Made by a program: the position numbers and the translations under genes. Below the pieces are notes generated by a model that did no database searches, was not told the origin of the DNA, and was given only the letters and a program-made list of their open reading frames with translations. A stretch of DNA of 45,135 bases, taken from sequence record PQ178821.1; one strand, 5' to 3'. The stretch comes from Escherichia phage BMA1. This document shows, in pieces, positions 40 to 45,135 of the stretch; within the stretch, counting starts at the first letter, position 1; every line of letters starts with the position of its first letter.

Positions 40-80
40 ATTGGTTGCGTCCGTGCCAGCACCCTGATATATTGGTTGCA
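40..80 (+). promoter_or_regulatory. Two direct copies of ATTGGTTGC motif (40..48, 71..79) upstream of first + strand gene
   Basis: Same 9-10-mer recurs in many intergenic regions of this window; GAGGA RBS follows at 88..92. Confidence 0.4.
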
Positions 81-589: not shown

Positions 590-859
590 ATGAGCCGTAG
601 ACGAGCAAAACAGCTTTCGTGGCATATTCCACTGCATTGCATACGAATATGGGCTGAGAATGCGGTTGAGGGCGATTCTGTGTTCTGGTGTTATCGCGAT
701 GATGTGAAGCCACTGACACAGACTCGCTATTTGCACCAGTTCGCAGCACAACACGATTTCAGGGTGCGGGCTTCCTTGCAACCAATGGGGATTCGTATTA
801 CATTACGCCGGAAGCCCGCCGTTGAGCGGGTAGGAAAACACTGGAGACTGAGCAAATGA
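590..859 (+). CDS. hypothetical protein (89 aa)
   Basis: ORF tightly packed after previous gene with AAGGGG RBS. Confidence 0.5.
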   Translation: MSRRRAKQLSWHIPLHCIRIWAENAVEGDSVFWCYRDDVKPLTQTRYLHQFAAQHDFRVRASLQPMGIRITLRRKPAVERVGKHWRLSK

Positions 860-3399: not shown

Positions 3400-4542
3400 A
3401 TGCACCCGCAAACTAAAATCACAGACGAGCAATTGATTGCTGAATTACAATCCGGCGCTACATCGAAAGATATTGCGAAGAAATACGGGATTGCCCTACG
3501 CAATGTTTATATGCGGAAAGCCCGCCTATCGAAAAAAGGCATTGGACACGGCAACGATGCCGTAATCCGCAAGCGCGTTGCCGATGGCTTTGGGGTTAAG
3601 CGCGTATCGGCCCTGGTGCGCGGCAATGGTGAAGAGGTCATGTCGTGGGTCATCACTGAGCAGGACAAAGAGCGCCAACTCGAAGCCATGCGCGCTGTTG
3701 TCGAGGGTATGAACAGCGAAATCACACCGGCAGCGCCAGTAAAAGCCCCGCCAGTACCGATCCAGGCGCTCGACTTGCTCAACCTGTACACCGTGTCAGA
3801 CTTCCACCTGGGCATGTTGGCATGGGGCGAGGAGACTGGCGAAGATTGGGATATGGCGATCGCCGAAGACCTGTTCTACCGCTGGTTTGTCGAAGCCTTC
3901 GCACGCGCCCCGGACGCAGGCACTGCCGTAATTAATATCCTCGGTGATATGGCCCACTTTGATAGCCTCGATGCTGTCACTCCGGCAAGTGGTCACATAT
4001 TGGACGCCGACACCCGCTACCAGAAACTGGTCCGATACATGATTCGCATGGTGCGAAACGTCGTCGAACTGGCGCTGCAAAAACACCACAAAGTCAAACT
4101 GCTAATCGTCCAGGGAAATCATGACGAGTCGGGTATGATTTGGCTTGCGGAAATGTTCAATACTCTGTATGAGAACGAGCCGCGCGTCGATGTGGATACG
4201 TCGCCGGATGTCTACAAAATGGTGCAGCACGGTAAAACCACGCTATTCTTCCACCACGGGCACAAAGCGCGCTTCGATGCTATCGAAACCGTCATGATTT
4301 CTAAATTCAGACAGGCTTTCGGGTCCAGCGAGTACAGCTACGCGCATGTAGGCCACTTGCACCACCAGAAGATTGTTGAATCCCGCAACATGATTGTTGA
4401 GCAGCACCGGACCCTAGCCGCGAAGGACGCATATGCCAGTCGTGGCGGTTGGATGTCCGGTCGCAGTGCCAACGTAATCACCTACAGCGCCAACTACGGC
4501 GAAGTAGCGCGCTTAACCATTAGCCCGGAAATGTTGAAATGA
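3400..4542 (+). CDS. HTH domain fused to calcineurin-like metallophosphoesterase (380 aa from ATG 3400)
   Basis: N-terminal helix-turn-helix-like segment; DFHLG, GDMAHFD, GNHD, HHGH, GHLHH motifs in the order typical of metallophosphoesterases; AGGAAG RBS before ATG 3400. Confidence 0.6.
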   Translation: MHPQTKITDEQLIAELQSGATSKDIAKKYGIALRNVYMRKARLSKKGIGHGNDAVIRKRVADGFGVKRVSALVRGNGEEVMSWVITEQDKERQLEAMRAVVEGMNSEITPAAPVKAPPVPIQALDLLNLYTVSDFHLGMLAWGEETGEDWDMAIAEDLFYRWFVEAFARAPDAGTAVINILGDMAHFDSLDAVTPASGHILDADTRYQKLVRYMIRMVRNVVELALQKHHKVKLLIVQGNHDESGMIWLAEMFNTLYENEPRVDVDTSPDVYKMVQHGKTTLFFHHGHKARFDAIETVMISKFRQAFGSSEYSYAHVGHLHHQKIVESRNMIVEQHRTLAAKDAYASRGGWMSGRSANVITYSANYGEVARLTISPEMLK

Positions 4543-9870: not shown

Positions 9871-10635
9871 TTAGCGCGGAATACCGCAGATTTCGTTTAA
9901 CGTCTTCACATCCAGCGCCACCGCCGTGGATTTGGGCTTGTCGGGGTATGGAATGAATTGTTCCACTTCAGGCCACGCCTTGATCAGCTTCTTATCGGTA
10001 TTGTGCATATCCAGCACGCCGGTAACAGTTAGTTTGAACGCGTCATACTTAGCACGCAACTCACGGCGGGCCTTGTCGTTACGGTCCAGGCGCTTACAGA
10101 AGTCATGATCTGCCGGTAAATCCACACGGCAGCGTGGCTTATAGATCGGCAGCGATTTTCCGTCCTCGTCCACTTCACACACTGAAGCCAACATAACTGT
10201 CTCGAACCCCGGAACGATATCGCCGAGATCAGGCGAGAGCTTATTCATATATTTCTCTTCCCAGTATCCGCGATGTACGCGGTATTGGCGACCGTCACCG
10301 CTCAAGGACAAGATGCGAACATTGCCGCCTGCGTTGATTTCAAAGGTGGCGTCGTAAACGCTGCCGATACCCTTCGGGCGATCTGTGTCATGGCGATATG
10401 TTGCCTCGTTGGTGTATACGCTGACGCTGTACATCTGCGACTGGTCGTCGCGGATTGCCTTGATATGCTCGCGGAGCGCTGCGAACGTGCGAATGCCTTC
10501 CGGCATACAGTCCAGCGTGATTGCGTACGCCAGGTCGCGAGAGTCCATCATGATTGTTTTGGCTTCGGTAGCGATTTCGTGGTCGCGCAGGATGTTAGCC
10601 AGGATCTGATTTTTAATGTCTTTCGTCAGTCTCAT
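9871..10635 (-). CDS. hypothetical protein (254 aa), antisense insert in head operon
   Basis: Long ORF on opposite strand to surrounding structural genes; no motif I can assign. Confidence 0.6.
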   Translation of the reverse strand: MRLTKDIKNQILANILRDHEIATEAKTIMMDSRDLAYAITLDCMPEGIRTFAALREHIKAIRDDQSQMYSVSVYTNEATYRHDTDRPKGIGSVYDATFEINAGGNVRILSLSGDGRQYRVHRGYWEEKYMNKLSPDLGDIVPGFETVMLASVCEVDEDGKSLPIYKPRCRVDLPADHDFCKRLDRNDKARRELRAKYDAFKLTVTGVLDMHNTDKKLIKAWPEVEQFIPYPDKPKSTAVALDVKTLNEICGIPR

Positions 10636-11017: not shown

Positions 11018-11041
11018 TGCAACCAATATACTGCAACCAAC
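11018..11041 (-). promoter_or_regulatory. Two direct ATTGGTTGC-type motifs (reverse orientation) upstream of - strand cassette
   Basis: TGCAACCAAT at 11018..11027 and TGCAACCAAC at 11032..11041. Confidence 0.4.
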
Positions 11042-11143: not shown

Positions 11144-11848
11144 ATGAAACTTACTAAAGCAGAATATGACGCGTTGCCGGAAGGTATGAAGGCGCTTTTT
11201 GTTGCCGATGGTGACGGGTATAAATCAACGTTCATGACCGCAGAAGAAGTACAGGCGGAAATCAAGGGTCTGAAAGACAACAACGCGAAGCTGGTGAGCG
11301 AGAAGAAAGCAGAAGCCGAACGCCGCGCCGAAGCTGAGCGCCTTGCGAAAGAGAAAGAGGAGGCCGCCGCGCGCAAAAATGGCGACCTCGAAGCGATCGA
11401 CAAGTCCTGGAAAGATAAGTTTGCGAAACACGAAGCAGACACATCGGGAAAAATCGAAGCCTACCGCAAGCAGATCCACGATCTAACCATCGGCAGCGCT
11501 GCCAAAGACCTGGCGTCGAAGCTGTTCGGTAAGAATGCGGGAATCATGCAACGCCACGTAATGGACCGCCTGACGCTGGAAGACGGCGAAGACGGCAGCT
11601 TGAAAGTGCGTGTCTTGCAGGATGGTAAACCGTCCGCGCTGACTATGGAAGAGCTTGAAAAAGAGTTCCGTAATAACGCCGATTTTGCGTCCGTCCTGGC
11701 TGGCACGCCAGCCGGTGGCGCGCCTAGCAAACCGACGCAGGTTGTCGAAGATGTGAAGTCGAAAATCACTATGGGCCATAGCTTCGGCATCACTGACCTT
11801 ACGAAACAGGCGGGAGATATCATCGCGAAGATGGGCGACGACGAGTAA
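11144..11848 (+). CDS. scaffolding protein candidate (234 aa)
   Basis: Ala/Glu/Lys-rich coiled-coil-like sequence (AEAERRAEAERLAKEKEEAAARK); directly upstream of capsid gene; GGGGA RBS. Confidence 0.6.
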   Translation: MKLTKAEYDALPEGMKALFVADGDGYKSTFMTAEEVQAEIKGLKDNNAKLVSEKKAEAERRAEAERLAKEKEEAAARKNGDLEAIDKSWKDKFAKHEADTSGKIEAYRKQIHDLTIGSAAKDLASKLFGKNAGIMQRHVMDRLTLEDGEDGSLKVRVLQDGKPSALTMEELEKEFRNNADFASVLAGTPAGGAPSKPTQVVEDVKSKITMGHSFGITDLTKQAGDIIAKMGDDE

Positions 11849-11945: not shown

Positions 11946-13040
11946 ATGTCTTTAACAGTGTTCCAGCGTAAACTCGTTACCGCGGTTACGCAAATGATCC
12001 CCGACAACCTGAACGTTTTCAACGCTGCCGCCAATGGCGCTGTTGTTCTCGGTACTGGTGAAGTGCTGAAGGATGTTGTAGAAAAAATGTCCGTAGGCTT
12101 GATCGCCAACCTTGTTACCGACCGTAACGCCTACGCCCCTGTCGGTACTCCGGCAACCGCTAAAGTGCTGGCGCGTATGCTGACCAACTCGGTTAACCTT
12201 TCCGCAAAAGTGGGTCCGGTAGCAATCACTAAGGCCATGATGGCTAAGATCGAAACCAACGTTAACAGCGTTGCGGCTGAGATTGCGGCACAGGCTACTC
12301 AAGCGATTATGCTGCATTACCTGAAAGCAGGTATCGGCGCAAGTAAAGCGGCGATCGAGAGCAACGAAGAGGCAAAATACACCCAACCGGCGCGCGTTGA
12401 CGGCGTTGGCGGTCGAACCTTCCCGACCCTCGCAGACTTCCCGCTGGCGGCGTCCAAGTTCGGCGATCAGGCGTCTTTAATTAAATCCTGGTTTATGGAC
12501 GGCGTTACCTGGGCAAACTTCATTGCATACCAGGCGCTCCCGTCTGCCGAGCAGGTATTCGCGATCGGCGATCTGCAGGTAATGGGCGATGGCCTGGGCC
12601 GCCGTTTCATTATCTCCGATGCCGCTGCCGATGCAATGGGTGCGGGTAAAATGTTGGGGCTGGTCCCTGGCGCGGTTGCAGTTACCACCAACGGCCTTGA
12701 TATGCTGGCGCAGGAAAAAGGCGGTAACGAGAACATTGAGCGCTGGTGGCAGGGCGAGTTCGACTTCAACGTGGCTGTTAAAGGCTATCGTCTGAAGGCG
12801 TCCGCTCGTACGCCGATCGAAGGTGTACGCTCGTTCAAGCTGTCCGACATCACCACTTCCGATAACTGGGAACTGGACCAGGGCCAGGTAGACAACGCAC
12901 CGGCAACCGTGCAGGACGTTGGCGGCGATAGCGATACTAAAGGCCGCCGCCGTACGCAGACCGCGCAGGCAGTGCCTACCCGTAACATTAAGGAAACCGC
13001 GGGCGTACTGGTTACGCTGACTGCGACTACCGCGTCTTAA
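11946..13040 (+). CDS. major capsid protein (364 aa)
   Basis: Size and position after scaffold and before head-tail genes; followed by strong terminator. Confidence 0.75.
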   Translation: MSLTVFQRKLVTAVTQMIPDNLNVFNAAANGAVVLGTGEVLKDVVEKMSVGLIANLVTDRNAYAPVGTPATAKVLARMLTNSVNLSAKVGPVAITKAMMAKIETNVNSVAAEIAAQATQAIMLHYLKAGIGASKAAIESNEEAKYTQPARVDGVGGRTFPTLADFPLAASKFGDQASLIKSWFMDGVTWANFIAYQALPSAEQVFAIGDLQVMGDGLGRRFIISDAAADAMGAGKMLGLVPGAVAVTTNGLDMLAQEKGGNENIERWWQGEFDFNVAVKGYRLKASARTPIEGVRSFKLSDITTSDNWELDQGQVDNAPATVQDVGGDSDTKGRRRTQTAQAVPTRNIKETAGVLVTLTATTAS

Positions 13041-13098: not shown

Positions 13099-13600
13099 AT
13101 GTNATGGCGACCCGCAAACCTTTGTTATTTATGCCGCTGCGCGAGGCGTTGAAATTACGCCGAGCGACGCAACGCGACACCTTACTATCGTTAATGACTT
13201 CCTTAACGGCATAGACTGGATCGGCGAACAAGCAGACCCGACCGGAATTGACGCATGGCCTCGCGTCAACTACCCGTCAGACGGTAAGCCGGTGCGAAAC
13301 ACGCTTACTGAAGATTTGGCAGTAGTTCCCGCGGGGCAGATTGTAGACTTCGCATCAATCCCTGTCGCCGTTGAGCAAGCCGTTTACCGGCTGGCAATGT
13401 TGGTGGCGGACGAGGTCGATATTTCTCCTGTTGGCAGTGGTAAGGAGACTATCCGCGAAACTGTTGGCCCGATCACGATGGAATATGACCCTGCGACGAT
13501 TGGTAGCGGTGTCTCGTTCCCGTGGTGGGATGGCTTGCTGGGCCACTGGATTGACTCCGACGGCAACGCAGCGGGTAATTTTGACGTATTCCGGGGGTGA
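13099..13600 (+). CDS. head-tail connector / head completion protein candidate, reading frame broken by ambiguous base at 13103
   Basis: AGGAG RBS and ATG 13099; long ORF continues in +1 frame to 13600; removing the N at 13103 joins them into one ~166-aa ORF. Confidence 0.45.
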
Positions 13601-16610: not shown

Positions 16611-16929
16611 AAGCGGGACAGGCGGGACGTCCCGTTTTGTCCCGCCTCTGTAAAACCACATATCTAATCACTTTTATTGCATAAACTCAAAGCGGGACAG
16701 GCGGGACGTCCCGTTTTGTCACACCCTGTAAATGTGCATACCTATGCAGATTTCGTGCATAAACCAAACGGGACAAAAAGCGGGACAAACACGAGGCGGG
16801 ACAAAGCGGGACAGCACCCCGTCCCCGCCAGTGCTGCCGCGGTTTTTAGCCGATCGGGACAGCGGGACAGCACCCCAGTCTTTCAGACTAGACGGGGGTC
16901 AATGGCCCCCCTCGTCTGAGACTGAATAA
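16611..16929. repeat. GCGGGACA iteron array with tandem ~76-bp subunits and terminal hairpin (copy 1)
   Basis: At least 9 GCGGGACA-like units; palindromes GCGGGACGTCCCG+TTTT at 16622..16638 and 16701..16717; 3' part near-identical to 44851..45025. Confidence 0.7.
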
Positions 16930-26854: not shown

Positions 26855-27073
26855 TTATTTGCAGGTTGTGCTTTTGAAGTGGTCCACTGACACATACTGG
26901 AAGTTGAACGGGTATCCCGCCCTAAGCATTTTGTGTCCGCTAAAATCGGCGACCCCAAACACGGGGACTGAGTAATCCATGCCGCTATTCTGGTATGTCG
27001 CGTCGCAGACTTTAGCTGGCATGTTGGCACAACCGGACAAAAGAACCGCACAAATCATAATTAAAGTTTTCAT
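26855..27073 (-). CDS. small lipoprotein (72 aa), superinfection-exclusion candidate
   Basis: AGGAGA RBS, signal peptide with lipobox LLSGC; antisense between J-like and tail fiber genes. Confidence 0.6.
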   Translation of the reverse strand: MKTLIMICAVLLSGCANMPAKVCDATYQNSGMDYSVPVFGVADFSGHKMLRAGYPFNFQYVSVDHFKSTTCK

Positions 27074-27127: not shown

Positions 27128-27137
27128 TGCAACCAAT
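27128..27137 (-). promoter_or_regulatory. ATTGGTTGCA motif (reverse orientation) upstream of lipoprotein gene
   Basis: TGCAACCAAT on + strand, 55 nt upstream of the - strand ATG. Confidence 0.35.
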
Positions 27138-27153: not shown

Positions 27154-28893
27154 ATGGCAGCGGGTACTCTATCCGTAACGAATAACAGCAAGGCGGTTGT
27201 AGGGGTAGGCACAACGTTTACCGCGTTTAACGCTGGCGACTTCTTAACGCTGGTTGTAGGACAAGTCCCCTACACCGTGGCAATCGCGTCCATTGAAAGC
27301 GACACGTCGCTTACTCTGGTTCTGCCGTTCGACGGCCCAACGGCAACCGGCCTTGCGTGGGATGGCGTTAAGCGCGACACCATGTCCCTGGCAACTATGG
27401 GCGTGACCGTCCAGGCACAGAAAGCATTGCGCTTGATGATTGCGGATGAAAACAACTGGCGTGCAATCTTCGGCGACGCTGAAGAGATCACCATTACGCT
27501 GCCCAACGGGCAAGTTATGCAGGGTATGTCATGGGGCTATCTGTCGCAGTTGATGAAACAGATCGACCCCGTTGAGATGCGCAACCTGCAACAACAAGCC
27601 GCCGCATCGGAAGCAGCCGCGCAAGGATTTCGTAACGAGGCTGAAGGATTTCGAGACGGCGCGCAAGGATACCGCAACGAGGCGCTCCAATTCCGCACCG
27701 ACTGCGAAGGGCTGAAGAACGAAACGACAAACCTTCGCAACGATGCGCTCCAATTCCGCACCGACTGCGAAGGGCTGAAGAACGAAACGACAAACCTTCG
27801 CAACGATGCTAACACAGCTAAGACTGGCGCGGAGACGGCACGCGATCAGGCGCAGAACATCGCCGACGGTATGGACCCTGGCCAGTATATGCAGAAATCC
27901 GCAAACCTGAGCGATGTCGCTGATAAGGCGCAAGGCCGGGCGAATATGGGACTCGGCCCTACCGATGCCGTGGTGTTCGGAGGGGCTACCCTCAACGGTC
28001 CCTCGCGCGTCGACGGACCGCTGTTGCTCGGCAGGCAGCAGTGGGATGGGTCTAGCTGGGGGAGCTACGGACTACAATCGTCATTCGTCATCATGTCGCC
28101 GGATGGAGACTCCGAGCCGGGATTTTACATCAGGCCGCTATCGGGTGCGCCTGGGTACGCAACGTCGTTCACCTATAATCTCGCGATTAATCTTTTCAGC
28201 ACCGGTGCTCGCATCAAGGCGGTTAACTTCTCATCCAGCACTACGACTATGGGTTATAGCGAGATGTGGTCACGTGCATGTTTCCAGGGGCAGCCATACG
28301 ACGCCCAGGCGGGGGTTGAGAACTACCAATCGCTTGTCGCCGGTGCTTGCGGGACTATCGGACAGGGCTTTTACGGTGGCGTTGCGTTCGGCATGATGAC
28401 TTCTGGCAGGGCTGGGTGGCCTGTCGGTCAGATCTCGATCGGCGCACAAGACCGGGCGGCGGACGGCACTATCGGCCTGCAAATGCACTTCCGGTTTCAT
28501 TCATCCGGTAACATTACGTATACGGGGCCGGCGGGGTCGGGGTCATTCCAGCAAATCCCGGCATCTGACCGCAACATTAAGCATGATATTAAAGACGATA
28601 AATCCAGCACAGCATACGATAACATTCGAGCCATTCGATTCCGTAATTTCGTATTTAATGATGACGAGCAGGAGCGTATTCGTCGCGGGATTATCGCACA
28701 GGAGCTTGAAGAAATCGACCCGCTTTATGTTAAGCACCGCGAATACCACAACATGGAGCTTAACGGGCCGAAGATTACGCGACTGGAGCTTGACACGACG
28801 CCGCTGTTACTGGACACAATGCGAGCGTTGCAGGATACGATTAAGCAGGTGGAGGAGTTGAAGGCAGAGATCGCGGCGTTGAAGCAGGCGTAA
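27154..28893 (+). CDS. tail fiber protein with C-terminal S74-type intramolecular chaperone domain (579 aa)
   Basis: Heptad-like FRNEA/YRNEA repeats; SDRNIKHDI autocleavage-type motif near 28561; coiled-coil C-terminus. Confidence 0.85.
   Translation: MAAGTLSVTNNSKAVVGVGTTFTAFNAGDFLTLVVGQVPYTVAIASIESDTSLTLVLPFDGPTATGLAWDGVKRDTMSLATMGVTVQAQKALRLMIADENNWRAIFGDAEEITITLPNGQVMQGMSWGYLSQLMKQIDPVEMRNLQQQAAASEAAAQGFRNEAEGFRDGAQGYRNEALQFRTDCEGLKNETTNLRNDALQFRTDCEGLKNETTNLRNDANTAKTGAETARDQAQNIADGMDPGQYMQKSANLSDVADKAQGRANMGLGPTDAVVFGGATLNGPSRVDGPLLLGRQQWDGSSWGSYGLQSSFVIMSPDGDSEPGFYIRPLSGAPGYATSFTYNLAINLFSTGARIKAVNFSSSTTTMGYSEMWSRACFQGQPYDAQAGVENYQSLVAGACGTIGQGFYGGVAFGMMTSGRAGWPVGQISIGAQDRAADGTIGLQMHFRFHSSGNITYTGPAGSGSFQQIPASDRNIKHDIKDDKSSTAYDNIRAIRFRNFVFNDDEQERIRRGIIAQELEEIDPLYVKHREYHNMELNGPKITRLELDTTPLLLDTMRALQDTIKQVEELKAEIAALKQA
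27682..27807 (+). repeat. perfect in-frame tandem duplication (2 x 63 bp) inside tail fiber gene
   Basis: 27682..27744 identical to 27745..27807; encodes ALQFRTDCEGLKNETTNLRND twice. Confidence 0.8.
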
Positions 28894-28912: not shown

Positions 28913-28934
28913 GGGGCCGTGCGGCCCCTTTTTT
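28913..28934. terminator. bidirectional terminator between convergent operons
   Basis: GGGGCCG tg CGGCCCC stem with TTTTTT; separates + tail fiber gene and - strand block. Confidence 0.6.
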
Positions 28935-29508
28935 AGTTTGAGTTTTCCCAGTCCATTTTGCGCCGCACCAGGGGGCTTTCGTAGTATTCCTTCCCTTCCA
29001 CTTCCACTAAAGGCCAGTCATTAACAATCACGTACGGTTCCGCGATATCTTCAATCACGCCGTGCGCGTTATGTTGTCCGAAATCTACGCCCACCAGGAT
29101 AACCCCGGCAACTCGACGGGTTAGATACTCACGAGCGCAACGAGCCTCGACCAGTCCGCGACGGATGCCGCTGGTGGCCTTAACCTCATAGGTCCAGACG
29201 GCATCAATCATGTGTTCCCGGAAGTCGGGACCGGACTTAACCTTGCGCTTACCGACCATGATAATATCGCCGCGGTCGATTGTATTAGCACTAAACAGGC
29301 CGGTACGCATTAGCAAACCTTGCGGGATACAGCTACGCCCGCCCGCCTGCCCTTCGAGGTACATGCCTGCAAACATTTCGCCCAGCACACCGACCAGACG
29401 GCTTTGCTTGCACGCGTCGGACTTATACCGCCACTGGTCAAACTCTATGCTTGCGATCATTGCCGCCAGGTGGAATTGTTTACCAGATATTTCATATTCG
29501 CCGTACAT
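28933..29508 (-). CDS. hypothetical protein (191 aa)
   Basis: ORF with GAGGG RBS; D...EVK segment loosely compatible with a PD-(D/E)XK nuclease. Confidence 0.5.
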   Translation of the reverse strand: MYGEYEISGKQFHLAAMIASIEFDQWRYKSDACKQSRLVGVLGEMFAGMYLEGQAGGRSCIPQGLLMRTGLFSANTIDRGDIIMVGKRKVKSGPDFREHMIDAVWTYEVKATSGIRRGLVEARCAREYLTRRVAGVILVGVDFGQHNAHGVIEDIAEPYVIVNDWPLVEVEGKEYYESPLVRRKMDWENSN

Positions 29509-29550: not shown

Positions 29551-30114
29551 TTATTTCAGTGCGCTACGTACCAGTGTTTTTTCCATGTTACGGAAATCTT
29601 CCGGCGTCATGAGGATTTTGGACCCATCTTCGCCGGTGAGCAAGACCATAGGCTGGACTTCTTGGTCTGCAATGCCGAAATTGGCGGCTTTTACAGTCTT
29701 ACCCACCGATGCAGAAGGATTCCACGTCCCCGCGGTGGCGATGGGCCAACCTTTAAGGCTGTCGTATTGCGCTGCCGTTGTATCGACCTGAATCTCGTCG
29801 TGTACGGTCATGTACGACTCGCCCAGCAGGGCGGAGTACGCTACCAGGTCGACGATATTGTCTTCCTGGTGCTTACGGTGCTGGCGCACCAGCTTCAGGC
29901 AGATCAAGAAGGTCCAGGCTTCTTGCTCGGTCAGGTCGCGACCGGTAAGCGCGTTAAACACGGCAGCGATTTGCTTAGCGCTGCGTTCCTCTTTCGCGTT
30001 GTCATAGCCATTTTCTTTCCCGCGCTGTTCCATAGTGGTGGCGGCGTTTTTACAGTATTCGTATGCTTTCACAGTATTACCTTTTTTAGTGAGGGGGCTG
30101 TATTGCCCCGACAC
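29551..30114 (-). CDS. hypothetical protein (187 aa, GTG start; start uncertain)
   Basis: Long ORF; palindromic motif immediately upstream. Confidence 0.5.
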   Translation of the reverse strand: MSGQYSPLTKKGNTVKAYEYCKNAATTMEQRGKENGYDNAKEERSAKQIAAVFNALTGRDLTEQEAWTFLICLKLVRQHRKHQEDNIVDLVAYSALLGESYMTVHDEIQVDTTAAQYDSLKGWPIATAGTWNPSASVGKTVKAANFGIADQEVQPMVLLTGEDGSKILMTPEDFRNMEKTLVRSALK

Positions 30115-30125
30115 GTTTACTATAG

Positions 30126-30147
30126 TGCAACCAACCTATTGGTTGCA
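30126..30147. promoter_or_regulatory. inverted repeat TGCAACCAA-ccta-TTGGTTGCA (operator-like palindrome)
   Basis: 9-bp arms, 4-bp spacer; overlaps stop of upstream gene and precedes start of downstream gene. Confidence 0.45.
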
Positions 30148-30606
30148 AGTGAATTTCGCAACGTTTATTGCGTAAATATTCGGGACCAAATCGCTACACG
30201 CCCGACGGATAGCTGCAATGTTCTTCGGGCAGTCTTCAATGATGACCAGTTCTGACACGTCCGCGTAGCAGACCATTTTGAACACTGCGCACGCCTTAAA
30301 CTCTGGCGGCGGGGTGTCATCCAGCATGTGGCGCATAAACAACCGGCCCGCCGGGAAGACCTCCAATTGCTCGGCGGTGGTGTCCCAACATTCTCGCTGC
30401 CGGTTTGTCAGATACGCTATCTCGAAGCCTTGCTCTTTGTACATGCGCAGCAGCGGCAGCATATCCATGTTCAGATCTTCGCGGACGTGCGCTTTGTGCC
30501 ACTTTGCCCAAAAGGTTGATTTCGTTTTTATCCCCGGCACCAGGTCGGCACGCGCATCGCTTGAACCGTTAATAACGCCATCCAAATCGCAAATCAGTAA
30601 TTTCAT
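30136..30606 (-). CDS. HAD-superfamily phosphatase-like protein (156 aa)
   Basis: N-terminal CDLDGV (HAD motif I-like), downstream YLTNR and ED segments; GAGAG RBS. Confidence 0.45.
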   Translation of the reverse strand: MKLLICDLDGVINGSSDARADLVPGIKTKSTFWAKWHKAHVREDLNMDMLPLLRMYKEQGFEIAYLTNRQRECWDTTAEQLEVFPAGRLFMRHMLDDTPPPEFKACAVFKMVCYADVSELVIIEDCPKNIAAIRRACSDLVPNIYAINVAKFTCNQ

Positions 30607-31798: not shown

Positions 31799-31825
31799 TG
31801 CAACCAATAGGATTATGCAACCAAT
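31799..31825 (-). promoter_or_regulatory. Two direct ATTGGTTGCA motifs (reverse orientation), 17 bp apart
   Basis: TGCAACCAAT at 31799..31808 and 31816..31825, upstream of - strand gene starting at 31744. Confidence 0.4.
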
Positions 31826-34266: not shown

Positions 34267-34485
34267 TTATTCCGCCTTTTTCCAGACTTCTGTCTCACTG
34301 TTCCAGTTCCTTTTTGTGGCGTCGTAGTTGGTGGCGTGTCCGATGTGCACACCGGTAGCCCGGAAGCTCTTAAACTTCTGCCAGCACACCGTCAACGGCA
34401 GCGGGTAACTCATGCCAGCAATAAACCACACGCGATCGCCCGGTTTACATTCGCCCAGCTTGGTGAGCCGGTAATGTTCTTTCAT
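34267..34485 (-). CDS. hypothetical protein (72 aa)
   Basis: GGGAG RBS; preceded on the - strand by a GC hairpin with T-run. Confidence 0.45.
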   Translation of the reverse strand: MKEHYRLTKLGECKPGDRVWFIAGMSYPLPLTVCWQKFKSFRATGVHIGHATNYDATKRNWNSETEVWKKAE

Positions 34486-34496
34486 CGTCATGTCTC

Positions 34497-34521
34497 CCAA
34501 AAATGGCGGGACAAGCCCGCC
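34497..34521 (-). terminator. hairpin plus T-run on - strand (terminator/attenuator)
   Basis: GGCGGG cttgt CCCGCC followed by TTTTT on the - strand. Confidence 0.45.
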
Positions 34522-34535
34522 GTATTTATTATTTA

Positions 34536-34709
34536 TTATTTTTGTTCCGCACGGTAGCGGCGCTGCCGTTCGCGCTCTTTCTTATTGCGGCACGATTTGC
34601 ACTCGGCCCGATACCCGTCGGGGCTACGCGCCGTCTTACCGGTGTACTTGTGGAACTGGGATAGCGGTTTAACGCAACCGCAATTACTGCAGCGTTTCTC
34701 TTCAATCAT
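34536..34709 (-). CDS. small zinc-ribbon-like protein (57 aa)
   Basis: CSNCGC ... CKSCRN Cys pairs; GAGGA RBS. Confidence 0.45.
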   Translation of the reverse strand: MIEEKRCSNCGCVKPLSQFHKYTGKTARSPDGYRAECKSCRNKKERERQRRYRAEQK

Positions 34710-34768
34710 TTCTAAAATCCTCGTTAGTGCTAACCTGCTCACTATACTGTTAAGCGACCAATTCAGCA

Positions 34769-35338
34769 NACAATAAATCNCNGTCGGCTATGTTGTCGAT
34801 GACGGCCGTAATATTCAACAAGCAACTCAACCACATCGTAGTTAACACAAAACACGTTAGCGTCGCTCTCCAGCGCGGCTATGCTGTCATTTTCTGATCC
34901 TGTTCCGACTACAACCACCAAGGCGGGCACTCGCCATTATTCTTCCTCCGGGGGCNAACGGCAGCGGGTAACTCATGCCAGCAATAAACCACACGCGATC
35001 GCCCGGTTTACATTCGCCCAGCTTGGTGAGCCGGTAATGTTCTTTCATCGTCATGTCTCCCAAAAATGGCGGGACAAGCCCGCCGTATTTATTATTTATT
35101 ATTTTTGTTCCGCACGGTAGCGGCGCTGCCGTTCGCGCTCTTTCTTATTGCGGCACGATTTGCACTCGGCCCGATACCCNGTCGGGGCTACGCGCCGTCT
35201 TACCGGTGTACTTGTGGAACTGGGATAGCGGTTTAACGCAACCGCAATTACTGCAGCGTTTCTCTTCAATCATTTCTAAAATCCTCGTTAGTGCTAACCT
35301 GCTCACTATACTGTTAAGCGACCAATTCAGCAACCAAT
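34769..35338. repeat. low-quality chimeric duplicate of 33.9-34.0 kb and 34.39-34.77 kb, probable assembly artifact
   Basis: Contains ambiguous bases at 34769, 34780, 34782, 34956, 35180; near-identical copies of the 34267 and 34536 genes with scattered mismatches. Confidence 0.6.
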
Positions 35339-35592
35339 AAATCACAGTCGGCTATGTTGTCGATGACGCGAACGTCAGCACCGCGGCGGGCCATTCGCTC
35401 ATGTTCTCGCACCTGGTGCGGCTTCGGTTTTCCGCCGGGGCGCTTCACTTCGACGAACACTATTTTGCCGTTGATGATGATAATCAGATCGGGCGCACCC
35501 GCGCGCCCCTCCCATGCCACTTTACGGCAGAATCCGCCTACCTCTTTCACCCGTCGCATCAGGTGGCTTTGAATCCGGCCTTCGGGTGTCAT
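35314..35592 (-). CDS. VRR-NUC domain nuclease (92 aa)
   Basis: GAPDLIII ... VFVEVKRPGGKP...Q pattern typical of VRR-NUC. Confidence 0.7.
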   Translation of the reverse strand: MTPEGRIQSHLMRRVKEVGGFCRKVAWEGRAGAPDLIIIINGKIVFVEVKRPGGKPKPHQVREHERMARRGADVRVIDNIADCDLLVAELVA

Positions 35593-41325: not shown

Positions 41326-41748
41326 TTAATCTTCCAGTTCGAAATAGGTTTCTACGATTTCTTTTAACTCTGTGTGGAAGTCTTCTACGTCGTCATCTTC
41401 CAGCTTGGCGATTGATTTGATCTCGAACGATTCCAGCAGGTCGTCGAATTCGTCGTTCGCGTCATCATCATCACCGCCTGCAATAATAGCGGCATACTGT
41501 TTTATTTCGTCGCGCATCTCCGCCAGCGGATCGGCATCTTTCGTACCTTTGCCTTTCGCGGGTGCTTTTTTAGTTTTCGCCGGGGCTTCGGCTTCATCGT
41601 CGTCATCTTCGACAACTTCTTTTTTGGCCTTAGACGGCTTCTTGTCTTCCTGCTTACCAACGGCAGCGCCAACGGTTTCATAATGTTTAGCGATGGTTTC
41701 CAGTGCTACTACGCCGCGAGTGATCAGGTTTACGATTTGCTCAAACAT
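41326..41748 (-). CDS. highly acidic small protein (140 aa from ATG 41748)
   Basis: GGAGA RBS; Asp/Glu clusters (DDDDEAEA, GGDDDDANDEFDD, EDDDVED) separated by Lys-rich linker; first gene of - strand operon. Confidence 0.5.
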   Translation of the reverse strand: MFEQIVNLITRGVVALETIAKHYETVGAAVGKQEDKKPSKAKKEVVEDDDDEAEAPAKTKKAPAKGKGTKDADPLAEMRDEIKQYAAIIAGGDDDDANDEFDDLLESFEIKSIAKLEDDDVEDFHTELKEIVETYFELED

Positions 41749-41952: not shown

Positions 41953-41962
41953 ATTGGTTGCA
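41953..41962 (+). promoter_or_regulatory. ATTGGTTGCA motif in divergent promoter region
   Basis: Between divergent operons (41749..42151). Confidence 0.35.
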
Positions 41963-42091
41963 GGATGGGTGTCAACAACTAATTTCAAAAAAAAAGCGCC
42001 GAGGCAAAATGCACCGGCGCTAACCAATAAGAGACAATGAGACGGGAATTATTATTACACGCGTGCGCGCCCGTTTCAATATCCAAAGGAT

Positions 42092-42151: not shown

Positions 42152-42481
42152 ATGAATGTAAACGACGCAATCGAAATGTTAACTAAGACTGTTTGCAGTG
42201 AGACTAGCCGGTCCTGGGCGTATACCGATGCCGTGGGTGCGGTGCTATTTGAAATCGAACGTCTGCGACTTACCGAAAAAGAATTGCGCGCGAAGCTGGA
42301 ATTACTCAACGGTACGGCAGCCAGCAAGCTGCAAAAACACAATGAAGAAATGGAAGAATACAAAAAACAGGTTATCCGTCTACGTGAGGAAGGTAAATCC
42401 TGGGCGATGATTGCCGAGTTGACCGGAATTAATCAGAGCACAGTGCGCTCCTGGGTACGCAATAATAAAACTTCTAAGTAA
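42152..42481 (+). CDS. HTH DNA-binding protein (109 aa)
   Basis: C-terminal SWAMIAELTGINQSTVRSWV helix-turn-helix-like segment; first gene of rightward operon. Confidence 0.6.
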   Translation: MNVNDAIEMLTKTVCSETSRSWAYTDAVGAVLFEIERLRLTEKELRAKLELLNGTAASKLQKHNEEMEEYKKQVIRLREEGKSWAMIAELTGINQSTVRSWVRNNKTSK

Positions 42482-44767: not shown

Positions 44768-44812
44768 ATTGGTTGCCATTTTGAGTGTTTTTATCTGGCC
44801 GCATTGGTTGCC
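44768..44812 (+). promoter_or_regulatory. Two direct ATTGGTTGCC motifs 35 bp apart
   Basis: 44768..44777 and 44803..44812, just after the primase-helicase stop. Confidence 0.4.
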
Positions 44813-44850
44813 GTGTAGTGTAAATATAATGAATAGTTATGCAATAAAAC

Positions 44851-45025
44851 TGCATAAACTAAGCGGGACAAAAAGCGGGACAGACAAGGGGCGGGACAAA
44901 GCGGGACAGCACCCCCGTCCCGCCCCGGATGGCGCGGCCTGGCGAGGAGCGGGACAGCGGGACAGCACCCCAGTCTTTCAGACTAGACGGGGGTCAATGG
45001 CCCCCCTCGTCTGAGACTGAATAAA
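44851..45025. repeat. GCGGGACA iteron array with terminal hairpin (copy 2)
   Basis: About 85% identical to 16756..16929 overall; last ~75 bp identical, including the imperfect hairpin. Confidence 0.7.
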
Positions 45026-45135
45026 ATCCGGGGATTGCAAAATACACGGCAGCATGTTGCGAAGTGCGGTCGCGGATGAACTAGGCAACCAATGCGGGTT
45101 GCATTATGCGGAGTGAAAAACGCAGTTTGCAGATT

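Follow-up and report, generated by a model that had tools for sequence, protein, structure and literature searches.

The window analysed here, the whole stretch of 45,135 nucleotides from Escherichia phage BMA1 (PQ178821.1), belongs to a Dhillonvirus, a virulent siphophage of E. coli. The window is colinear with phage vB_EcoS_WFI from the first base, indicating that it is a complete or nearly complete genome. Genes read rightward run from 42152 to the window end and then from base 1 to 28893, and a leftward set, devoted to replication and DNA metabolism, extends from approximately 41950 to 28933. For the segment 29000-32000, matches were obtained to 157 phage records (80-92% identity), almost exclusively Escherichia phages assigned to Dhillonvirus, including mckay, EK99P-1, HK578, and SSL-2009a. 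Between the genes for a HAD-type phosphatase and a DUF6378 domain protein lies an inverted repeat, whose sequence and coordinates had been predicted correctly (Table 1). The arms are perfect over 9 bp and pairing does not extend beyond them, and the resulting 22-bp palindrome is built from a 9-bp unit that is present twice, in opposite orientations.

As also predicted, the stop codon of the upstream gene (TAG, 30138-30136) falls inside the palindrome spacer, and the distal copy encodes C-N-Q, the last three codons of the phosphatase gene. The intergenic gap had been given as 21 nt, but the most probable start codon of the downstream gene is GTG 30072 rather than the one at 30114, which leaves 63 nt. 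An ATG or GTG with an AAAGG ribosome-binding site is present at this start in all relatives, and the start agrees with the annotated 173-aa gene of mckay. On the - strand the region reads cacT-TGCAACCAA-TAGG-TTGGTTGCA-C-TATAGT-aaacgtgt-CGGGGCaatacaGCCCCC-tcact-AAAAAAGG-taatact-GTG. A stem-loop in the leader begins 2 to 4 nt past the probable transcription start near 30112; no U-tract follows it, and no covariation supporting the hairpin was detected.

A consensus scan reported TTGCAA and TATAGT hexamers separated by 18 bp on the - strand (30148-30119; 9/12 matches). The -35-like hexamer TTGCAA (30148-30143) is made from the distal copy together with the T at 30148, and a single base separates the proximal copy from the downstream -10 hexamer. 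The spacing lies within the 16 to 18 bp of sigma70-type promoters, and the hexamers and their spacing are kept in 18/18 related genomes while neighboring sequence drifts. Consensus promoter matches across the window were not more common than in shuffled sequence, and the promoter call therefore rests on conservation and on the offsets described below. These observations suggest that the palindrome sits in the core of a sigma70-type - strand promoter heading the DUF6378 gene, with one copy over the -35 hexamer and the other at -22 to -14. We found no transcriptome, promoter, or regulator study in the literature for Dhillonvirus, the named relatives, or eiAU.

Table 1. Features of the palindrome locus and other sites discussed in the text
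Feature	Position	Strand	Details
22-bp palindrome	30126-30147	top	TGCAACCAA 30126-30134; spacer CCTA 30135-30138; TTGGTTGCA 30139-30147
Distal copy	30139..30147	-	reads TGCAACCAA on the - strand
Spacer	30135..30138	-	4 bp, TAGG on the - strand
Proximal copy	30126..30134	-	reads TTGGTTGCA on the - strand; about -22 to -14
-10 hexamer TATAGT	30119..30124	-	TATAGT or TATATT in 18/18 related genomes
Stem-loop	30093..30110	-	G+C-rich, conserved; CGGGGC-AATACA-GCCCCC
Ribosome-binding site AAAGG	30080-30084	-	serves GTG 30072
Upstream gene, HAD-type phosphatase	30136..30606	-	stop codon in palindrome spacer
Downstream gene, DUF6378 domain	29551..30072	-	first gene of putative transcript
Sister site	31799..31824	-	two direct copies, 17-bp period, TTGGTTGCAT-N17-TATCTT
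Zinc-ribbon protein, candidate binder	34536..34709	-	57 aa, CxxC-x26-CxxC, basic C-terminal helix
Second, partial zinc-ribbon copy	35099..35273		within 412-bp duplication
Copy in 3' end of VRR-NUC gene	35330..35337	-	TTGGTTGCtg-N17-TATAGT
Two copies, CGCAACCAA and AGCAACCAA	39138..39161	-	bracket the -10 of 39175-39147
Single copy	41954..41962	-	in 18-bp spacer of TTGACA-cccatccTGCAACCAAtc-TATTAT
HTH protein	42152..42481	+	109 aa, long helix and C-terminal HTH
Non-coding region	44769..45092		starts 13 nt past primase/helicase stop codon
Two copies	41..80	+	TTGGTTGCG at 41, TTGGTTGCA at 72
Copy	777..785	+	TTGCAA-N17-TACATT, in 3' part of gene 590..859
Two direct copies, 14-bp period	11018..11040		divergent region
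Single copy	27128..27136		between small - strand gene 26855..27073 and tail-fibre gene 27154..28893

Arrangement of the two copies in related genomes

We compared the locus in 18 related genomes. The 22 bp were identical in 14 of them. In two genomes (L013 and L015) the spacer was flipped to CCTA, equivalent to a loop inversion of the palindrome, with loss of the stop codon. Genome L014 carried a direct repeat with a 3-bp spacer, TGCAACCAA-TAA-TGCAACCAA-C-TATATT, and L017, which is approximately 75% identical, carried a direct repeat in the opposite orientation with an 8-bp spacer, TTGGTTGCA-atccgtat-TTGGTTGCA-C-TATATT. All 18 genomes had two copies of the word, then one base, then TATA(G/T)T. 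The hexamer TTGCAA is itself palindromic, and the distal copy can supply it in either orientation; it was found 17 to 18 bp 5' of the -10 hexamer in the inverted arrangement and in both direct arrangements, in 18/18 genomes. The base between the proximal copy and the -10 hexamer was variable (C, T, or A), as was the 5' untranslated region. From this comparison it follows that the dyad and any RNA hairpin would be dispensable, whereas the hexamers and the two copies would not. The comparison thus indicates that the palindromic arrangement is incidental and that conservation applies to the presence of two copies and to where they stand with respect to the hexamers.

The original prediction had read the 4-bp-spaced palindrome as the geometry of a dimeric operator, and the direct repeats of L014 and L017 speak against this. 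A classic dyad has a fixed half-site spacing that is kept among relatives, which was not the case here, and elsewhere the unit is found as single copies, in tandem, directly repeated, or inverted, at periods ranging from 9 to 35 bp. The operator-like reading survives in part. A protein-binding site acting at the DNA level and overlapping the promoter is suggested by a word that is invariant amid drifting flanks, restricted to intergenic and promoter sequence, and placed at fixed offsets from the -10 hexamer; the dimeric dyad geometry is not retained.

Distribution of the word in the window and in other phages

The claim that the word recurs across the genome was borne out. The 9-mer is present 10 times on both strands against 0.49 expected, a count reached in 0/100 shuffles. 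Its invariant core, GCAACCAA, has 18 copies in the window, 14 of which lie wholly between genes although coding sequence makes up 90.7% of the genome (binomial P = 7e-12), and ranks second in frequency among the intergenic 8-mers of the window. One-mismatch variants of the core showed no intergenic enrichment (4/50 intergenic), indicating that the exact word is what is selected. The consensus of the unit is (T)GCAACCAA(T), with the T present in 10/18 copies.

The exact copies outside coding DNA all lie in promoter-like settings. We measured the distance from 86 copies in five genomes to -10-like hexamers, with approximately 0.5 copies expected per offset. A -10-like hexamer was located at +27 from TTGGTTGC in 15 copies, an offset at which TTGC begins a -35 hexamer with a 17-bp spacer. 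The hexamer was at +10 from TTGGTTGC in 11 copies and at +9 or +10 from GCAACCAA in 13. These peaks place the 9-mer either over the -35 hexamer or, in either orientation, at -22 to -14, and the two copies of the palindrome occupy exactly both of these preferred positions.

The promoter scan also placed the word inside two other - strand promoter-like sites. The site TTGACA/18/TATTAT (41975-41946), with a copy at 41954..41962 in its spacer, is the best sigma70-like promoter of the window, and three genomes of approximately 72% nucleotide identity (L171, L173, and L175) have two tandem copies at the counterpart position. The second site, TTGACC/17/TAGATT (39175-39147), has one copy in its spacer and one just past its -10 hexamer. 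The promoter layout of the sister site at 31799..31824 is kept in L016 and L017. The copy at 35330..35337, directly 5' of a zinc-ribbon gene copy, is kept in L016, L017, L171, and L173, and eiAU has the same layout. At 11018..11040, between the Nmad5 gene (9871..10635, - strand) and the gene at 11144..11848 (+ strand), TATATTGGTTGCAC overlaps a -10-like hexamer. The counterpart of the copy at 27128..27136 in L017 is a pair with a 17-bp period followed by TATATT. The copies at 41..80 form TTGCGT-N17-TATATT 5' of the gene starting at 104 and, if the genome is circularized, continue the non-coding region 44769..45092. This region contains copies of the word at 44769, 44804, and 45085, a conserved box GAATAGTTATGC (44831-44842), and GCGGGACA repeats (44863-44964), and it is likely to be a replication-origin or control region.

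The word was also found beyond Dhillonvirus. Serratia phage Smarc3, which has the gene order of the window and a primase/helicase 45% identical to that encoded there, carries 13 copies of GCAACCAA against approximately 1.2 expected. Nine of the 13 are in coding DNA, four of them, in differing codon contexts, within the 3' end of the gene for the primase, and one copy lies over the start site of a TTGACA/17/TATAGT promoter. Edwardsiella phage eiAU-183 (Eiauvirus) has 23 copies, of which 17 are intergenic, making the word its top intergenic 8-mer; nine are found within 773 bp beginning inside the 3' end of the primase gene, and the TTGGTTGCAT-N17-TATAGT layout is present as well. Other relatives are essentially free of the word, with 0 copies in Cornellvirus VSiP, 2 in Jerseyvirus SETP7, and 1 in the E. 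coli Kagunavirus NTEC3. A search of 185,579 bacterial species genomes for the 22-bp palindrome returned 15 scattered matches, which is the chance level, and no host locus. The existence of related phages that do not carry the motif, together with the chance-level occurrence of the palindrome in bacteria, points to a clade-specific, phage-encoded binder. The word is best explained as the main cis-regulatory word of Dhillonvirus, shared with Eiauvirus and Smarc3.

Viral contigs were also scanned for inverted pairs with a variable gap, and nearly all matches were attributable to chance. The scan yielded one group (L099/L140) with iteron-like clusters adjoining a VapE-type primase. The group was found by means of this very word, and a selection effect is possible.

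Candidate binders and explanations of the word

The original prediction had named two potential binders. The first, the HTH protein at 42152..42481, is a weak candidate, being confined to Dhillonvirus-like phages. At its gene position eiAU-183 and Smarc3, both of which bear the motif, have an unrelated XRE regulator. The protein gave matches above cut-off to HTH_23 and Sigma70_r4_2, its structural model consists of a 55-residue helix followed by the HTH, and its DNA-binding half was invariant in 24/24 homologue clusters, with a variable N terminus. A profile search against solved structures and a Foldseek search with the model returned generic small-HTH matches only, none of them significant. 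The second, described as an HTH-phosphoesterase (3400..4542), matched only metallophosphoesterase and DNA-repair-exonuclease families and no HTH.

The best candidate would instead be the zinc-ribbon protein encoded at 34536..34709. Every genus that carries the motif has it, and in the genera that do not it is weak or missing. In Dhillonvirus and Smarc3 its gene is immediately preceded by a promoter that carries the motif, which in Smarc3 is the TTGACA/17/TATAGT promoter with the word over its start site; in eiAU one further gene stands in between. No Pfam match of this protein rose above noise, the homologue search returned only 3 clusters, and Foldseek found no significant match to a known DNA-binding protein or fold. 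The Dam methyltransferase has the same phyletic pattern, being present in all motif-bearing phages and weak or absent elsewhere. XRE regulators were rejected as the binder, being present in both motif-bearing and motif-less phages, and so was the winged-helix-like domain at the C terminus of the primase, whose alignment revealed no conservation specific to motif-bearing phages; VSiP has an equally similar primase and no copy of the word. A more far-reaching proposal is that the 57-aa zinc-ribbon/basic protein reads the 9-mer as a monomer in any orientation, marking the origin region beside the primase and gating nearly every promoter, so that a single replication-transcription switch would serve Dhillonvirus, Eiauvirus, and the Smarc3-like phages, all virulent siphophages but with different hosts among the Enterobacterales. 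We regard this as speculative and rather unlikely.

We hypothesize that the palindrome comprises promoter-embedded sites for a phage-encoded regulator, probably a repressive one, and we hold this reading with about even confidence. The - strand promoter (TTGCAA/18/TATAGT) would start the mRNA of the DUF6378 gene (29551-30072), on which the gene at 28933-29508 is probably carried too. A sequence-specific phage protein would bind each 9-mer as a separate unit and, once bound, would block RNA polymerase. The same regulator would act on approximately nine other word-bearing promoter regions, and the result would be a timed shut-off of early and middle transcription. That a protein binds, which protein it is, and in which direction it regulates are deductions from sequence, and our preference for repression over activation is a guess from position only. 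It stems from two features: in the strongest promoters, whose hexamers are near consensus, the word lies within the spacer or across the start site, as expected for occlusion, and where the word covers the -35 hexamer the promoter retains TTG, a spacer of 17 bp, and a -10 hexamer with 5/6 matches.

The same placement can be read in the opposite sense. If the 9-mer replaced or extended the -35 element, a bound phage factor could recruit host RNA polymerase, either as a class II activator or by appropriating sigma as T4 MotA/AsiA does, and the palindrome promoter would be a middle or late one that is off until the factor is made. The 15/86 copies in which TTGC stands at the exact start of the -35 hexamer, 17 bp from the -10 and in one orientation, fit this explanation, as do -35 hexamers that match at only 4/6 positions (TTGCAA, TTGCAT, TTGCGT, and TTGCTG); one factor could moreover repress the TTGACA-type promoters, which have the word in the spacer, and activate the others. 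However, with TTG, a spacer of the optimal 17 bp, and 5/6 matches in the -10 hexamer, these promoters should suffice for sigma70 alone, a second copy at -22 to -14 in either orientation would be unexpected, and no MotA, AsiA, Mor, or Ogr-type family was found in any scanned protein, so that we consider a positive promoter-specificity element possible but unlikely. The explanation closest to the original prediction, in which the palindrome is a dyad operator and the HTH protein its dimeric binder, is doubtful. The protein is the only clear sequence-specific HTH protein in the window, its long-helix and HTH model would be compatible with a dimer, and its DNA-binding half is invariant, as is the motif, while the N terminus varies; its gene opens the rightward early operon at a motif-carrying divergent control region, and in L171, L173, and L175 a copy lies 9 nt past the -10 hexamer of the gene's own promoter. 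Yet dyad geometry is not kept even at the palindrome locus, spacings of 9 to 35 bp in both orientations are unfit for a rigid dimer, and both eiAU-183 (23 copies) and Smarc3 (13 copies) use the word without a homologue of the protein.

Replication offers a further frame, in which the word would primarily be an origin iteron of the primase/helicase module and its promoter copies would link transcription with replication or provide secondary loading sites. All three genera have copies at the primase/helicase gene, either within its 3' end or just beyond it (44769 and 44804, from 13 nt past the stop codon, in the window; four in Smarc3; and nine in eiAU), and these are followed by an A+T-rich stretch, the conserved box, and a second repeat family, and a distant phage group has 8 copies of GCAACCAA right after a VapE-type primase, with drifted variants in its relatives. 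Clusters of at least 3 copies beside an initiator gene in A+T-rich sequence, as iterons would form, are seen at 44769-45092 and 41-80, in eiAU, and in Smarc3, whereas the palindrome is an isolated promoter pair 14 kb away. The constant distances from -10 hexamers speak for a role in transcription, motif-bearing phages show no specific conservation of the primase C-terminal domain and VSiP has no copy, and the distant match, obtained via this word, may reflect a selection effect; we judge the iteron explanation improbable. A site for a host factor is very improbable. The example we considered was the E. coli CytR repressor, with half-sites TGCAAC/GTTGCA: the palindrome reads TGCAAC-N10-GTTGCA, which fits the reported inverted spacing of 10 to 13 bp, and the motif-bearing genera all infect Enterobacterales (E. 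coli, Serratia, and Edwardsiella). Against the CytR octamer (AATGCAAC/GTTGCATT, core TGCAA; PMC3454398), however, the overlap is only GCAAC; the invariant CCAA of GCAACCAA falls outside AATGCAAC, and the AA prefix is not kept, with T in 10/18 copies. No CRP-like site (at most 2 mismatches in 10 core bases) flanks the palindrome within 80 bp, and over all copies in the window a single such site falls within that distance, with 0.4 expected. NTEC3, a related phage of E. coli, does not use the word (1 copy), and the palindrome was not found in enterobacterial chromosomes. Sigma54 promoters and FNR, PdhR, and MarA-type sites were provisionally set aside on half-site order or spacing. An RNA hairpin at the 3' end of the phosphatase mRNA, serving as terminator, processing site, or stabilizer, is extremely improbable, although the - strand RNA would form a perfect 9-bp stem with a 4-nt loop and the 106-nt region folds better than 200/200 shuffles (z = -3.5). 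An intrinsic terminator is not what the sequence resembles, since the stem has 4/9 G-C pairs and is followed by CUAUAGUAAACG on the - strand rather than by a U-tract, and the terminator scan had no entry here. Moreover, the hairpin cannot form from the direct copies of L014 and L017, and elsewhere the word is single or directly repeated.

Significance and likeness to known systems

Promoter-embedded sites for a phage regulator would be a familiar kind of element. We found no description of this motif in the literature, and it is common to three phage genera and three hosts. Coliphage collections commonly contain Dhillonviruses, which also serve in work on phage therapy and phage defence. One exact word on most promoters would allow promoters and regulons to be mapped in more than 150 sequenced genomes and would provide an engineering handle for inducible or silenced phage genes and, by DNA-affinity capture, a direct route to the regulator. 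The finding adds a new, testable example and leaves the view of phage regulation unchanged.

In the middle promoters of T4, the MotA box occupies one position in one orientation. The likeness to the present word lies in a phage-specific sequence of 9 bp that occupies the -35 region at many promoters, with the -10 hexamer remaining of the host type. Here, however, there is a second preferred position at -22 to -14, both orientations are used, and some promoters have a perfect TTGACA; the single fixed position of a MotA-type middle promoter was not found, nor did a Pfam scan of 39 window proteins reveal MotA or AsiA homologues. Plasmid Rep proteins (pPS10 RepA, F RepE, and R6K pi) act on direct iterons at the origin and on inverted repeats at the rep promoter. 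In the phage, too, one half-site of unchanged sequence is directly repeated in a cluster beside the putative initiator gene and inverted over a promoter. In contrast to the plasmids, the inverted repeat lies away from the promoter of the initiator gene itself, unrelated promoters carry dozens of copies, and the putative DNA-binding domain of the initiator does not covary with the motif.

CytR is the closest host analogue. It is reported to bind TGCAAC-N10-13-GTTRCA and to accept direct repeats and variable order and spacing, and CytR-regulated promoters are stated to have at least one CRP site (PMC3454398). The TGCAAC/GTTGCA core is common to both, and the inverted arrangement with a 10-bp spacer fits the palindrome. 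The systems differ in their conserved letters (GCAACCAA here, AATGCAAC for CytR), in the flanking CRP sites, which the phage does not have, and in the clade-specific occurrence of the word among coliphages.

The operators OR and OL of lambda resemble the word-bearing promoters in having short conserved sites over the -35 hexamer, spacer, -10 hexamer, or start of sigma70 promoters, several copies per promoter, and a divergent early control region. No protein of the CI/Cro type follows the distribution of the motif here. Lambda operators are 17-bp pseudo-dyads of fixed geometry in two control regions of a temperate phage, whereas the unit described here is a 9-mer that is used singly, in tandem, directly repeated, or inverted in approximately ten promoter regions across the genome of a virulent phage.

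The spacer of the 30126-30147 palindrome and the adjacent hairpin

In two related phage genomes, L013 and L015, the 4-bp spacer of the palindrome formed by two inverted copies of the recurrent 9-mer was found to be flipped at the equivalent of positions 30135-30138, reading CCTA on the gene strand rather than the TAGG of the window. This flip is a signature of palindrome loop inversion, and with it the TAG stop is lost and the phosphatase ORF is lengthened by approximately 16 codons. The stem-loop at the start of the inferred DUF6378 mRNA was kept in 17 relatives with variable stem length, and no covariation was detected in the stem among these 17 genomes; it may serve as an mRNA-stabilizing 5' hairpin.

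Features of the window and of L140, from a distant phage group
Feature	Position	Strand	Context
Nmad5 (nucleotide-modification-associated) domain protein gene	9871-10635	-	E = 1.8e-60
GCGGGACA cluster 2	16613-16869		unannotated gap 5' of tape-measure gene
G+C-rich stem-loop	30093-30110	-	extreme 5' end of inferred DUF6378 mRNA
Hairpin with run of nine T	41996-42020 (hairpin)	-	~30 nt downstream of promoter-like site 42079-42051
Promoter-like site TTGAAA/17/AATAAT, upstream TG	42079-42051	-
Palindrome TTGGTCATTAACCAA	42123-42137		just 3' of the -10 of promoter-like site TTGACA-17-TAGTTT, upstream of HTH gene
Box GAATAGTTATGC	44831-44842		3' of primase gene
GCGGGACA cluster 1	44863-44964		3' of primase gene
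Eight GCAACCAA copies (L140)	12463-12724		directly 3' of primase gene

The control region before the HTH gene, and the leftward Nmad5 gene

Three relatives (L171, L173 and L175) carry an exact GCAACCAA at the position matching palindrome TTGGTCATTAACCAA. The palindrome thus appears to be a copy of the word that has diverged, sited at the promoter of the regulator itself. On the - strand, no ORF was found between the leftward promoter-like site and the hairpin that follows it, and the segment 41996-42079 could encode a short non-coding RNA within this divergent control region or could be a terminator insulating the early promoter. A motif pair (11018/11032) precedes the Nmad5 gene, the only leftward gene within the head module.

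A duplicated segment and the quality of the assembly

A 412-bp segment is present twice, at 34394-34804 and 34957-35368 (98.8% identity; period of approximately 563 bp), and the duplicate holds second copies of both the zinc-ribbon gene and the 35330 promoter. The duplicate contains N bases, and the annotations of the relatives mckay and WFI list a single zinc-ribbon gene at the corresponding place; either the segment was duplicated recently or the second copy is an artefact of assembly. Eight N bases occur in the window (13103, 34769, 34780, 34782, 34956, 35180, 41057 and 41943). In relatives, the homologues of genes 13292..13600 and 41326..41748 are longer, a difference suggestive of sequencing errors in the present assembly.

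Repeats following the primase gene

The window holds 16 copies of a second repeat family, GCGGGACA, 15 of them intergenic and most lying in two clusters; the genuine origin iterons may be the members of this family. The repeat word after the primase gene varies among relatives, being GGTGCCA in L171 and L175, TGTGCGGAA in the Serratia phage Smarc3 and GGGGGAGA in the Cornellvirus VSiP. Box GAATAGTTATGC likewise lies 3' of the VSiP primase gene, although the repeats flanking it differ between phages, with GAATAGTTATG present in L016 and L017 and a GAATAG core in L171 and L175. The box may be a conserved origin element.

A distant phage group, comprising L140 (IMGVR_UViG_3300006133_000038) and its relatives L142-L152, shares the DUF2800/DUF2815/PolA/VRR-NUC/SNF2 module of the window but has a VapE-type primase. 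Close relatives carry ACAACCAA, GTAACCAA or GTTACCAA in place of the iteron-like GCAACCAA copies, so that the specificity of the iterons appears to drift.
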